This document shows, piece by piece, positions 37,298-63,396 of a stretch of DNA of 64,000 nucleotides (its first letter is position 1; every line of letters begins with the position of its first letter). A model generated the notes under the pieces. It was not told the DNA's origin and made no database searches. It was given only the letters and a program-made list of their open reading frames with translations. The position numbers and the translations under genes are program-made. Source of the stretch: Chrysomallon squamiferum (lineage: Eukaryota > Animalia > Mollusca); assembly GCA_012295275.1 (NCBI GenBank), contig CM022679.1:29326001-29390000 (forward strand), in the 5' to 3' direction.

Positions 37298-38717
37298 TCA
37301 TTTTCTTGAAGATCCGTCAGCTGCTCTTCTTCCTAATAATAATAATAATAATAATAATAATAATAATAAAAACCGTAACACTAATTATAACTCTCTCTCT
37401 CAAAAAAAAAAAAAAAAGAACTTACTGTCTTCAGGAAACTCGTCATTTCCACTGAAAATGGAGAAATGTAGAACAAATGTAAAATGTAGAACAATGTAAA
37501 ACAGTAGAAATGTAGAACAATGTAAAACTACAAATGTAAAATGTGGAACAATGTAAAACAGTAGAAATGTAAAATGTAGAACAAAATGTAAAAATACTGA
37601 GTAGAAATTAAAAATTAGAATAAAAGCTAAAATCCAGAGCAGAAATCTAAAATTATTTATTTATTTATTTATATAAAATCTGTTGCAGGCTCTTTTCCCG
37701 TTATAACAAGGACTCTATGACAGGGTTACCAAAAGTCGTAAAATTATTTTAATTATATGTGGGGGGAAAATGTATGAAAACTATTCCTTTCTTCTGACAG
37801 GAGTAACCTAGTGTGCAACAGACAACCGTTTCATCATTTAGTACATTTAGAGAAAATTTATAAAACTCACGTTTTTACATCCCATTCGGATCTGTACTTA
37901 TCACTGAAAAAAACAAAACCAAAAAACATCCAGGTTACCACTACAGTTTCGACTAGTATTAGTATGACCATTAATTCAGCTGTTAACCACAGGCTGAAAA
38001 TCCTTTACCCGAAATGATTGGGATCGGACGTGTTCGGGGTTTCGGAATATCTCGGAATAATAAGGAGTTAGCACGAGAATAGAATCTAGGTGAGAATTCC
38101 ATTTATTTATCGTGTCCAGATATTCCGAAGAAAAGTTTGTATCATTTCTATTTAATAATTTGGGCCATAGAATAAAATGTGTGTATGCAAGAGTCCTAGA
38201 ACTGTAAGATATCCGTGTTTCTGCCGCTCGGAGAAAGTTTCGGATTTAAGAGCTTCTTGGTTTTCGAAATTTCGAATAAGGGATCTTCAACCTGTACTAC
38301 TATTCCTACTACATTTATTATTACTACCATCACAATTATTTGATTTATAATTATTATTATTATTATTATTACCACTACCACCACAAATTCTAATACTACC
38401 TATATTAATACTGCTATCATATTATTTACCACTACTATAAAAAATAAAAAAAATAAATATATATATATTACCACTGTAACTACTGTTTTTGTTAATATCA
38501 CATTATTATTACTATTTTTTCTTTCCTATTTTGTTACTTGAAAACCAGTTAATTTAAGAAGTGATACATTACATACGCTACTTTTAATTGTAAATGTTCT
38601 AACTGAGGTTATTTAACTAACGTACCGGCAGGCTTTCAAGCAGCTGGAAACGCTAGCCTCGGTGATGATGCATGGGGTGAGGATGAGCAACAACAGGAGT
38701 AGTTTTACTGCCAACAT
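37298..38717 (-). CDS. Small secreted CxxxC peptide, micro-exon gene A (61 aa)
   Basis: Exons 38717-38626, 37903-37871, 37451-37426, 37332-37298, all GT-AG, give [61 protein letters not shown]. Paralogous to gene B in signal exon, exon phases and 3' UTR. Confidence 0.7.
37990..38294. mobile_element. Tigger/pogo-like non-autonomous DNA transposon (MITE)
   Basis: Imperfect TIRs caggctgaaaatcctttacccgaaat ... atttcgaataagggatcttcaacctg, TA on the right flank; the terminus resembles Tigger-type CAGGTTGAGTATCCCTTATCCGAAAT ends (from memory). Confidence 0.75.
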
Positions 38718-38896
38718 TGTTCAGTTAGAATCTGAAATAGAAAAAATATACACTTCATAAAGTACTGCTGCTGTGTATATATATATATGCGTGCATGTAT
38801 GTACGTGTATGCGCGTGTGTGGTCATACGGACATGAGCATTTAGAATGAATACAAAACTGAAAAAGAATTTAAAAAAGATAATAAATGCAATATAC

Positions 38897-39396
38897 CCTG
38901 TGGATTTGTTCGGTTCAGATATCGGGCTGATTTTGTCGTGATTTAGGAATACCTGTGTATCTTATTTATACGTTTAATCAGAATAATTTTGCATCATCTG
39001 TTCCCTCCAAATGAGAGACTGTGACAGCCATTAGTGAGGTTAATTACTGTTTTTGTACTTTTGCTAAAATCTAATCGACATTTGCTTGTGTAAATTAACA
39101 TAATTAATGGTACTTAACACCAATTATGCATTGTTAAGTATGCTATTTTTCACAACAAAATCCCTTTAGTTTGTAATGGATCAACGAGCAGTTTATAAAA
39201 AACTAGTTTTAGCGTCGCACCAGTTTCCATATCAAAAGTACGAGACCACGAATTAATATGAAAATCTGGTTAATTGCTGTCATGGTTTCTGATTTGGCCG
39301 AAGCAGACGGTACTATATTATTCTAATTAAAGGTATAAATAAGGCCAGTAGGTAATGGAAAGTCATAACAGGACTTGAAGCGAAAAGAGCATCAAG
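38897..39396. promoter_or_regulatory. Divergent promoter with two TATA boxes and two non-coding first exons
   Basis: GTATAAATAAG on the minus strand (TATA 38963-38970) and on the plus strand (39334-39341); GT donors at 38896 (-) and 39397 (+). Confidence 0.7.
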
Positions 39397-39539
39397 GTAT
39401 TGCATTCGTTATTATTATTATTATTACTTTAATTACTATTATTATTATTATTATTATTATTATTATTATTATATTAACACAGACAGCAGCAGTATTTTAT
39501 GAAATATATATTTTTTCTATTTCAGATTCTAATTAAACA

Positions 39540-60658: not shown

Positions 60659-61789
60659 ATCTATAATACATTGAAATATAAACATAATTATGAACATTAA
60701 AATATACACGTAACTGTTAAAATTAAAATATTTATGTCTGGCTATGCGTGTATGTATGTAGATAGAAATATAGATGGTTAGGTAATAATTTTTAAGTTGA
60801 CATGTACAATGAATACAATCAAAACATACCTTCAAAGTGTTCTCTTTTCTACAGTCCAAAGAGCAAGTTCAAGCTGGTATGAATTTTCGTTTGAACGTGC
60901 TGCTATTTATTTACAAATTCGTTTAATATAGCAAATGTGTTTAACACACTACACTCAGTTACACATTGTTAACAGAGCCGTTAGAAATAAATGATTACAA
61001 TTACTTATAAATAGATTCACCTATTTAATTAATTATAAAATGATAATTAACATTTCACTGCTCACTTAGTATTTATAAATCACTTTATTTACTTTAGGAA
61101 GTTTTTTGGTTATTGATATTTAGTGATATTGAAGTAATCAGTTCTGTGATTTGGATGTTAATCGAATGTGAATTCTGTTTTCAGTGCTGTCACACTTGAA
61201 ACAGGACAACAAAATTTTCTTGGAGAATATTCAGTCAAATGATTATTAATTATTGTATTGCAAAATACACTTTCTCTAGTTGTAATTCAAAACGTTACTC
61301 TTTGGAAACCAATGTTCAAATTTTAAAAAAGTCCTTAATCGTAATTCAAAAATTTCAAGATTCAGGGCTGAGAGCTAATTTTAGCTGATTAATCACAACG
61401 TACGGTTACCTTACTTTCATATTATTATTAATTAATCTAATAATTGAATATACTTACCTTATTTACATATTAAGTAACGTAATAATGAAATATGCTAATT
61501 CATTTCAGTGTGTGTTTCTATTCCGTTCAACACGTTTTAGTACACTAGACAGCTTCTTGTCAATTACAGTAAATAAAACCAAAGTTCAAATTTTTAAACA
61601 GTCTTTAACCGTAATTCAAAAATTTTCATCTTTCTTTGATTTAGACCATGAGAAATCATCTCTCTTTTGTCAGTCGAATTATATGCATATTTAAAATAGC
61701 TTTCATCTCTCTCATAATGTATTCATTTTTCATTGTATATAGATATCGGCTCCTCGACTGACACTTTTTCTGTCATTGGTTATTTGAGA

Positions 61790-62060
61790 AAAGTGGCCAT
61801 CTCAAATATTAGATGTTCGAGTTTGCAATCTTGATGATTTTCGAAATATTACAGACCTAACTGTCAAAAATGGCTGGTTCTTTGCATGATAGAGTACCAA
61901 TGTTCTCAGACAAAGTTGAAAATTTATTCTGCTTTGCAGCCTCACTCCGAGGATCAACAAAAAATAAAAGAGGAAAAAGAGTGAGCTTGATGAAGTGAAA
62001 CTTCATGTTTTAACTTAAAATTTCAGAAGATCTGTAGACGTTATTCATAATACTAGGTGT
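61790..62060 (+). pseudogene. Inverted, degenerate copy of BUB1 5' UTR, exon 1 and start of intron 1
   Basis: Matches the reverse complement of 56110-56403 (tgtcaaaaATGgctggttc ... ctgctttgcagcctcactccgaggatcaacaaaaaat ... ga|gtgag ... gaagatctgtagacgttattcataatact); the KEN-coding segment is deleted and the frame is shifted. Confidence 0.9.
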
Positions 62061-62759
62061 TTTCTTTTTCATTTTGTTTTAAATCATTTTTCGGATTAAA
62101 AAAAAAATTCATTCGTGAAATAAGATATGATTTTCAAAAAACGAAAAGGAAAAAAGAAGAAGAAAAAAGCTTATCTAATTTATTACGATTATTTTTATGT
62201 CAGTCGTTAGTATAACATTTAACATTTTAGTTTTCAAAAGATGGAAAGTAAAGGAAGATAAAAACAGAAGAAAAGGAAACAACAAGATATGTTTTAAGGA
62301 TCATATTTTATTCATCATTCAGTTTTAGAAATAAAATGATGTTTTCATGGTTGTCTTCGAAACCAATTGATTCACGTCCCTTTTCAGCTGAAAAATGAAT
62401 TAAAGCTTTTATTACAATCTACACATTTTCCAAGAAAACACATCAGTATATAAATACATGTAGTTTGAACTGTTCATATAATTAACGTGCTTCATTAGTA
62501 AGAATTAAACTTTGTTATTAATTAAAACCGAAAACCGTGTTAATTCTTCTCTCTCCGTACATAATGGTTATTATCTTTTCTCATCTTGAACTTAAAATTG
62601 TACCGTTATTTTTTTTTTTTTTTTTTTTTTTTTTTATTATTATTATTATTATTATTATTATTATTATTATTTTAAATATAGTTCATATATAAGATAAACT
62701 GATAACGTTTTCTTATATGTCAACGTTCCAAAAACATAGAAAGTTGTTTTATTTATATT

Positions 62760-63396
62760 TCAACCGGCGACAGTAAAATCAGTTTTAATAATAATAATAA
62801 TAATGATAATAGTAGAAGTAGTAGTTGTAGTAGCAGTAGTAGAAGTAGTAGTAGTAAATGTTCTTAGACGACACTTTTGAATGCAATCATTAAGCATCCT
62901 AAAAATATCAAATTTAAATTATTAAAATATTGTAATAATGAATATCGAATTTTAAATAAATAAATAATTTATTTTTATGACGAAAGCAATTTATTTTTTT
63001 ATTTTTTATTATTTTTTTATTTTTTATTATTTAAACAAAATAATTAAAACAAAATAAAGGAAAGAAAGAAAGGAAGAAGGAAACACAATTTCTTTTCGGA
63101 TTTACGATCATATCCAACTAAACAGTGATATTAGTCATCACCAACATCATAACCAACAATTAATTTATAAATATTCATTCAGCTGAAACGGTCACTTGTT
63201 AATAATTACTTGTAATAAGCGACAATCTCTCTCTCTCTCTCTCTCTCTCTCTCTCTCTCTCTCTCTCTCTCTCTCTCTCTCTCTCTCTCTCTCTCTCTCT
63301 CTCTCTCTCTCTCTGTTTGAAACTAACTTATAGCTCACAGATACTCACAAATATTCTCTATATACAAATCGTACTTACCCATAAGTGTATCGACCA
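62760..63396 (-). CDS. 3' part of paralogous peptide gene D (5' exons outside the window)
   Basis: Exons 63396-63379 (GRYTYG) and 62898-62760 (MLNDCIQKCRLRTF plus Thr/Ile tail) at positions homologous to gene C exons, with intact splice sites. Confidence 0.65.

Follow-up and report, generated by a model that had tools for sequence, protein, structure and literature searches.

Secreted peptides that join a conserved signal sequence to a hypervariable mature part have been reported in the mussel family MgCRP-I (PMC4558851) and in the micro-exon genes (MEGs) of schistosomes (PMC4350168), the latter being described as restricted to flatworms (PMC4350168, PMC4015677, PMC10526429). The alpha-hairpinins, a family poorly detected by homology, are recognised by a four-cysteine (4C) motif, C-x(n)-spaced between two C-x3-C pairs with n = 4-20 (PMC11591084), and the double C-x3-C motif is also found in the kappa-hefutoxins, OmTx, flf14 and vil14a (PMC7191063). 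The locus described here lies in a stretch of 64,000 nucleotides (nt) from Chrysomallon squamiferum (contig CM022679.1 of assembly GCA_012295275.1, positions 29,326,001 to 29,390,000), called the window in what follows, and comprises the peptide genes A, B, C and a partial D, placed on both sides of BUB1, together with a C-type remnant. Judged from the sequence, A-D appear to be real, lineage-restricted genes for secreted-type peptides with no detectable relative, and are likely undescribed. It is proposed, with moderate confidence, that these small intron-containing genes encode predicted secreted, hypervariable peptides stapled by cysteines (Cys) and likely acting on microbes at surfaces or in tissues.

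The four genes and the remnant had been predicted to flank BUB1, and all of them are present, BUB1 being identified by matches in the PDB (E 2.6e-13 and 1.8e-9). The layout of the signal exons of A, B and C is beyond chance: each follows an AG, contains an ATG, a hydrophobic run and a C-x3-C, and has a GT two bases past the second Cys, the arrangement that the original prediction had described as a signal exon with a phase-2 donor. A filter for this layout returns exactly three matches in the window, A, B and C, against one in 200 block shuffles, an optimistic estimate of chance given that the filter was written after the genes had been seen. The signal-like stretches reach a best 8-residue Kyte-Doolittle mean of 3.7-3.9, a value that is a hydrophobicity heuristic alone. 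The window has 24-38% GC and many microsatellites, and within it the modelled exons give open frames for predicted products of 61 (A), 58 (B) and 77 (C) residues, A and B stopping at a homologous codon. The common TATA-like box that had also been claimed is clear in A and B (TATAAATAAG), whereas C has a mere TAAATAAATAG-like, weak site; the non-coding first exons are marked by their donor sites alone.

The predicted micro-exons of 18-33 nt hold up in part. All of those modelled (33 and 26 nt in A, 27 and 23 nt in B, 21 and 18 nt in C, 18 nt in D) are bounded by AG and GT and keep open frames, but with a splice-site matrix trained on 27 FASN introns and a threshold of 4/4 bits, as many as 170 AG..GT pairs of 10-40 nt pass in the window, and for this reason micro-exons are not acceptable on splice signals alone. 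Five of the seven modelled ones pass that threshold, while B's 27-nt and C's 21-nt exons fail it. Five of seven are multiples of three, in a set picked to keep the frame, and micro-exons make up 0.32, 0.29 and 0.17 of the coding region of A, B and C. In the region of C a 14-nt candidate exon (60132-60145) was rejected; it has an acceptor score of -4.9 and breaks the frame. Gene C may have an alternative 3' end as well: if a GT donor after 58335, one codon past the fourth Cys, were spliced to an acceptor at 57867, the product would end in a tail of seven residues that includes a KR site; the matching acceptor occurs in D, which has no counterpart of the 58335 donor. After their stops, A at 37220-37275 (-) and B at 40645-40700 (+) share a short two-Cys frame with an in-frame 3-nt indel and double stops at its end, which may reflect ordinary conservation of an untranslated region (UTR) or a lost coding tail.

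Transcript evidence concerns gene B. It comes from four runs, of which three are RNA, that cover part of the A/B region as contigs only and were placed on 37100-40500; contigs show presence and not absence, and their depth is unfit for ranking expression. Because contig depth in run X2 matches the micro-exons of B to the base, B would be transcribed and spliced, and it is the sole gene of the four for which we infer splicing. The depths in three bins (0.49, 0.31 and 0.81) correspond to 15, 8 and 25 bases of one 646-nt contig at a depth of 3.7: the 15 and 8 bases are exactly B's 23-nt exon at 40391-40413, divided by a bin edge, and the 25 bases are 25 of the 27 in the other micro-exon, two bases inside which a contig piece of run X4 begins. 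Between the micro-exons, two X2 intron bins have zero depth and one has 0.79. The 646-nt contig also carries B-type 3' sequence near the offset expected for a spliced transcript that starts by the end of exon 2, with one edge base that mismatches the window's B allele. The first exon of B has no cover in the RNA contigs, and neither do the coding exons of A in any of the three RNA runs, which, these being contig data, is not counted against A. Run X4, DNA-like and of a type not recorded, covers most A and B exons and is about 3% divergent upstream of B; the exon differences listed for it include one synonymous change in the A signal and two replacements in mature B.

The function proposed for these genes draws on the way in which they have diverged. 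Genes C and D form part of a recent tandem duplication with blocks 89-94% identical, and yet their mature-peptide exons differ at 22/49 bases, against 42/612 in non-coding sequence (intron plus downstream; Fisher p 1e-11), replacement divergence being some 6 times the non-coding rate. With the alignment anchored at the splice sites, identity runs 12/15, 7/18 and 18/21 across the 18-nt exon, and 47/50, 20/31 and 21/24 across the last exon, in which both Cys are retained. A and B agree at 37/40 bases of the intron end, at 60/65 of leader plus signal and at 16/30 where the mature part begins, and codons 1-17 hold three synonymous and no replacement changes. Selection is one explanation of this contrast; hypermutation confined to the exons could also account for it, as could gene conversion of introns combined with selection against converted exons, and each of the three points to functional exons that are kept distinct. 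Exon-over-intron divergence offers new, sequence-based support for a role in defence or recognition, and a microbe-facing role is rated the likeliest cause of the pattern; of the defence, toxin and signalling roles first suggested, venom is unlikely.

A contrary explanation, which seems unlikely overall, is that A/B and C/D are two unrelated small families, with C/D decaying or wrongly chained and the four-Cys hairpin never made as modelled. A broken C-type copy adjoins, C and D differ at a possible donor and at the stop position, and the chance-level abundance of micro-exon candidates and the weak donor of C's 21-nt exon speak for a wrong model. Neutral decay of C and D is nonetheless improbable, since exon length, splice sites, frame and both Cys are kept while the bases between them change. 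As to kinship, A is clearly related to B, and C, D and the remnant are clearly related to one another, but the similarity between the two pairs, all of which had been placed in a single family, is weak. In comparisons of first exons with that of C, 6/2000 shuffles reach the score of B and 1233/2000 that of A; for second exons the corresponding figures are 145/2000 and 1314/2000 as DNA, and 81/2000 and 25/2000 as protein, a shuffle that ignores the layout common to any signal peptide. Among these six cross-pair tests just the B-C first exons and the A-C signal protein stand out. Both pairs share the phase-2 donor two bases after C-x3-C, a point against two separate origins, and this common intron position together with closeness makes a distant kinship reasonably probable.

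Two observations relate the array to BUB1 itself. An inverted, degenerate copy of the BUB1 5' part lies between D and C at 61791-62063 (+), 77% identical over 308 nt to 56102-56407, and a weaker match to the adjoining intron is found at 57483-57643, between C and the remnant; the repeat unit of the peptide array has carried along a piece of BUB1. On the other side, the 3' ends of B (+) and BUB1 (-) converge at 40620-41450, and the 646-nt X2 contig would extend to about 41150 if colinear; the 3' UTRs of the two genes may overlap.

The predicted product of C has, as the original prediction had proposed, the pattern C-x3-C-x18-C-x3-C, with eight Lys or Arg and no Asp or Glu in a 28-residue core; the x18 spacing, however, needs the 21-nt exon, which is placed by its frame and acceptor, and skipping of either or both micro-exons leads to x11, x12 or x5. 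In all four splice forms the predicted product would retain C-x3-C-x(4-20)-C-x3-C. The disulfide-stapled helix-loop-helix suggested for C is a pattern that its predicted product fits, and D's last exon carries a second C-x3-C, whereas A and B, with a single C-x3-C each, cannot form it as single chains. The Cys begin 4-6 residues past the predicted cleavage, with no N-terminal propeptide. Helix propensity in C is fair near the first motif but lower near the second. Mature A is near neutral (+1.4) and mature B acidic (net -4); after the single motif each has a segment that varies, an acidic part and basic residues, a layout reminiscent of the precursors of mussel mytilin and myticin with their acidic C-terminal extensions.

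These features may be put together in a mechanism. The signal would be cleaved at about residue 20-22, and in C, and probably in D, pairing of C1 with C4 and of C2 with C3 would, by analogy with the alpha-hairpinins, staple a cationic helix-loop-helix. The loop would be built from frame-neutral exons of 18-21 nt, the skipping of which would yield x5, x11, x12 or x18 variants, and the Thr tail might be glycosylated, cut at basic residues or spliced off. In A and B a half staple would be followed by the acidic segment and basic residues, and the products would act as single-loop peptides or, after loss of the tail, as disulfide-linked dimers, dimerisation being a guess. Tandem and inverted duplication beside BUB1 would supply the copies, and selection or exon-limited hypermutation would diversify them.

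Several facts weigh against microbe-facing peptides of this kind. The values of pN (0.45) and pS (0.48), the replacement and synonymous differences per site between C and D, are about equal, the latter over about 11 synonymous sites, and hence the ratio of the two substitution rates (dN/dS) does not formally exceed 1; homogenisation of introns by gene conversion could, moreover, produce the contrast between exons and introns. Hydrophobic moments in the mature region of C are modest, mostly 0.2-0.45, and B, being acidic, is a poor candidate for membrane activity. To these must be added the weak kinship between the pairs, already described. Regarding transcription, the check called for earlier gave the depth evidence for splicing of B, but no RNA joint appears among the 15 of 21 joint rows listed for the A/B region, and RNA run X2 includes a 212-nt contig from an intron of A (37928-38139), which may be a dispersed repeat, pre-mRNA or DNA carry-over. 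Lastly, synthetic MgCRP-I, the nearest molluscan analogue, had no antimicrobial or toxic activity (PMC4558851).

Three other functions have been considered. The peptides could be secreted signals or reproductive factors (pheromones, gamete-recognition or neuroendocrine peptides) whose target is one of the snail's own receptors and which diverge by sexual selection or receptor co-evolution, an option we regard as possible but doubtful. In abalone, the exons of sperm lysin and sp18 are known to evolve faster than the introns; sequences resembling basic processing sites, together with acidic spacers, are seen in A and B, B itself is acidic, and immediately upstream there is a secreted gene that resembles a prohormone. 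Against signalling, no Pfam family is reached at cut-off, and the mature parts of A-D vary while the signals are kept, the reverse of neuropeptides, which usually conserve the mature part while the rest drifts.

A structural secretion, of mucus, periostracum, shell or scale matrix, in which a Cys knob would sit on a Thr-rich, O-glycosylated tail, is improbable. The Thr-repeat tails of C and D and the Tyr/His-rich and acidic stretches of B are compatible with it, and peltospirids have lineage-restricted shell proteins (PMC11871041). The tail, however, is an ACT microsatellite conserved between C and D to the degree of intron DNA (21/24), and could belong to an intron or a UTR; an arms race is a better explanation of the rapid change seen in the Cys core; and five short motifs were absent from four supplements of the same proteome paper, which may lack sequences.

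Least credible of all, and in our opinion very improbable, are ion-channel toxins directed at predators and resembling the CS-alpha/alpha peptides of scorpions and cone snails. In their favour are the Cys motif of the kappa-hefutoxins, OmTx, flf14 and vil14a (PMC7191063) and a weak Pfam match of C exon 2 to Conotoxin (PF02950, E 0.034); at 15.5 bits, however, the match stays below the cut-off of 25.1 and falls mainly on the signal, and the Cys region has no propeptide ahead of it. The peltospirid family is not known to have a venom apparatus, and a venom role is unlikely in a peltospirid-like snail living on bacterial symbionts.

Returning to a microbe-facing role, a more specific form of it is that the peptides control symbionts, as the first such peptides in a chemosymbiotic vent snail: they would be a separately evolved equivalent of NCR and BCR peptides, with a hairpin loop tuned by swapping or skipping of micro-exons, in a MEG-like manner outside flatworms, and with A/B dimers that rebuild the staple. 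This extension is speculative and, on present evidence, unlikely. If the host is a chemosymbiotic peltospirid, the genes are concrete candidates for how such snails police bacteria, and the peptides are short enough for synthesis and direct assay. The main text of the Gigantopelta aegis hologenome paper does not contain the word 'antimicrobial', and passages of it discuss lectins and Toll-like receptors (PMC7895826).

Gene finders would likely miss these genes, and, in line with the earlier statement that no named family was recognised, single-exon queries found no relative in Pfam at cut-off, in the PDB or in protein collections. A word search with the three signal exons (targets of 17-81 residues) was blank, phmmer with C exon 2 gave 0 hits at E 0.001 among 1.84 billion representatives, the ESM Atlas had no usable match for C exon 2 or the last exon of D, single exons gave 0 and 2 chance-level matches in the PDB, and no peptide exon matched a Pfam family at cut-off; the queries had 31-46 residues, a length at which blanks say little. 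Rfam gave 0 matches in 36000-64000. Among the papers listed, which for two of the queries were 25 of 323 and 25 of 7,278, none reports on these peptides, so that absence from print is not established. Table 1 collects the coordinates.

Table 1. Features of the peptide genes and of BUB1, numbered from the first base of the window.
Feature	Position	Strand	Evidence
Gene A TATA box (38970) and putative non-coding exon 1, donor at 38897	38897..38970	-	motifs alone
Gene A exon 2: 14-nt leader, ATG 38717, signal-like sequence, C-x3-C, phase-2 donor	38626..38731	-	87% identity with B exon 2 region
Gene A micro-exon, 33 nt, phase 2-2	37871..37903	-	with the 26-nt exon, sole two candidates at 4/4 threshold in span
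Gene A micro-exon, 26 nt, phase 2-1, acidic	37426..37451	-	end aligns to B's 23-nt exon
Gene A last exon, stop 37298-37300, then 3' UTR	37200..37332	-	homologous stop in B; 86/101 bases common with B
Gene B TATA box (39334) and putative non-coding exon 1, donor at 39396	39334..39396	+	motifs alone
Gene B exon 2: ATG 39540, signal-like sequence, C-x3-C, phase-2 donor	39526..39628	+	RNA depth in that bin, X1 and X2
Gene B micro-exon, 27 nt, phase 2-2, Tyr/His-rich	39877..39903	+	X2 bin depth = 25 nt at 3.7; weak acceptor score
Gene B micro-exon, 23 nt, phase 2-1, acidic	40391..40413	+	X2 bin depths = 15 + 8 nt at 3.7; strong splice scores
Gene B last exon, stop 40618-40620, then 3' UTR, 3' end approximate	40583..40720	+	B-type UTR in X2 and X3 contigs, via match to A
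Gene C weak TATA-like site (60913) and putative non-coding exon 1, donor at 60830	60830..60913	-	motifs; likeness to remnant (0/2000 shuffles) and to B exon 1 (6/2000)
Gene C exon 2: ATG 60658, signal-like sequence, first C-x3-C, phase-2 donor	60561..60660	-	layout and splice sites
Gene C micro-exon, 21 nt, phase 2-2, basic/hydrophobic	59849..59869	-	frame and strong acceptor; weak donor; without RNA or paralogue support
Gene C micro-exon, 18 nt, phase 2-2	59284..59301	-	D has equal length and splice sites; interior 7/18 identical
Gene C last coding exon: second C-x3-C, then Thr-repeat tail and stop by read-through, or donor after 58335	58269..58365	-	
Gene D micro-exon, 18 nt	63379..63396	-	D's 5' part outside window
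Gene D last exon: C-x3-C, Thr/Ser tail, Ile run, stop	62760..62898	-	
Broken 5' copy of C-type gene: promoter, part of exon 1 without donor, intron, signal-exon start, no Cys	56750..57290	-	
BUB1, between the A/B and C/D pairs, limits approximate	41400..56350	-	PDB matches to BUB1 kinase and BUBR1

Other genes accompany the array. FASN occupies 167-19400 (+) with at least 27 introns; among the 37 proteins ranked by tblastn out of about 128 (lophotrochozoans, unnamed records and a few outgroups), its best match is that of Gigantopelta aegis, with 78% identity and 4372 bits, followed by Haliotis, Patella and Lottia with 59-65% and 3212-3294 bits. The ranking points to a likely peltospirid vent snail, or a near relative, other than G. 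aegis; Chrysomallon squamiferum, of the same family, has a published genome (PMC11871041). At 31240-31502 (+) lies the last exon of a gene which we take to be PICK1-like, with weak BAR/Arfaptin matches in Pfam alone. An orphan gene of secreted type follows at 34630-36234 (+). It has a TATA box, its first exon is non-coding, and a signal-like sequence begins at 34965; dibasic sites occur as well, and so do repeats of Lys, Glu and Gly. Its frame breaks in the repeat near 35340-35380, by an assembly slip or in a pseudogene, and its downstream frame of 336 codons has no Pfam match.

Compared with the systems described so far, A-D appear to belong neither to the alpha-hairpinins, which they resemble in motif, nor to the schistosome MEGs, which they resemble in layout. 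With the alpha-hairpinins and CS-alpha/alpha peptides they share predicted secretion and, in C, a cationic core and a predicted spacing inside the 4C motif (PMC7191063, PMC11591084), but in C micro-exons link the separate exons that carry the two C-x3-C motifs, A and B possess one half of the pattern, and the hairpin fold is a prediction for which single-exon queries gave no sequence match; plant alpha-hairpinins, moreover, come from vicilin or multi-module precursors, and the CS-alpha/alpha members (kappa-hefutoxin, OmTx1-3, flf14a-c and vil14a) are animal toxins of 22-27 residues (PMC7191063). The group is characterised by two antiparallel helices held by C1-C4 and C2-C3 disulfides and by antimicrobial, protease-inhibitor or K-channel activity. 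Like MEGs, they have a predicted signal peptide, tiny exons modelled as mostly symmetric (5/7 here), tandem copies and a mature part that changes faster than the signal (PMC4350168, PMC4015677, PMC10526429), whereas micro-exons, two per gene, form 17-32% of the coding region here and most of it in MEGs (PMC4350168). MEGs also produce pools of isoforms by exon skipping. Aphid BCR and legume NCR peptides are likewise orphan, clustered, short, secreted, Cys-containing and missed by annotation, in a host that, as here, is likely to carry bacterial endosymbionts; BCRs differ in having six or eight Cys, against two or four, and have strong expression in the symbiont organ as their defining trait (PMC3574423). 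The likeness to Mytilus MgCRP-I extends to lineage-restricted secreted peptides, a non-coding first exon, a conserved signal, a hypervariable mature part and kept Cys, but MgCRP-I has six Cys, a propeptide with a dibasic site and a mature peptide in one exon (PMC4558851), while A-D have two or four Cys, no N-terminal propeptide and a mature part divided among three or four exons. No case of a hairpin-type motif divided by micro-exons, in genes whose exons outpace the introns about six-fold, came up in the searches made; small, hypervariable, secreted Cys peptides are already familiar in molluscs.

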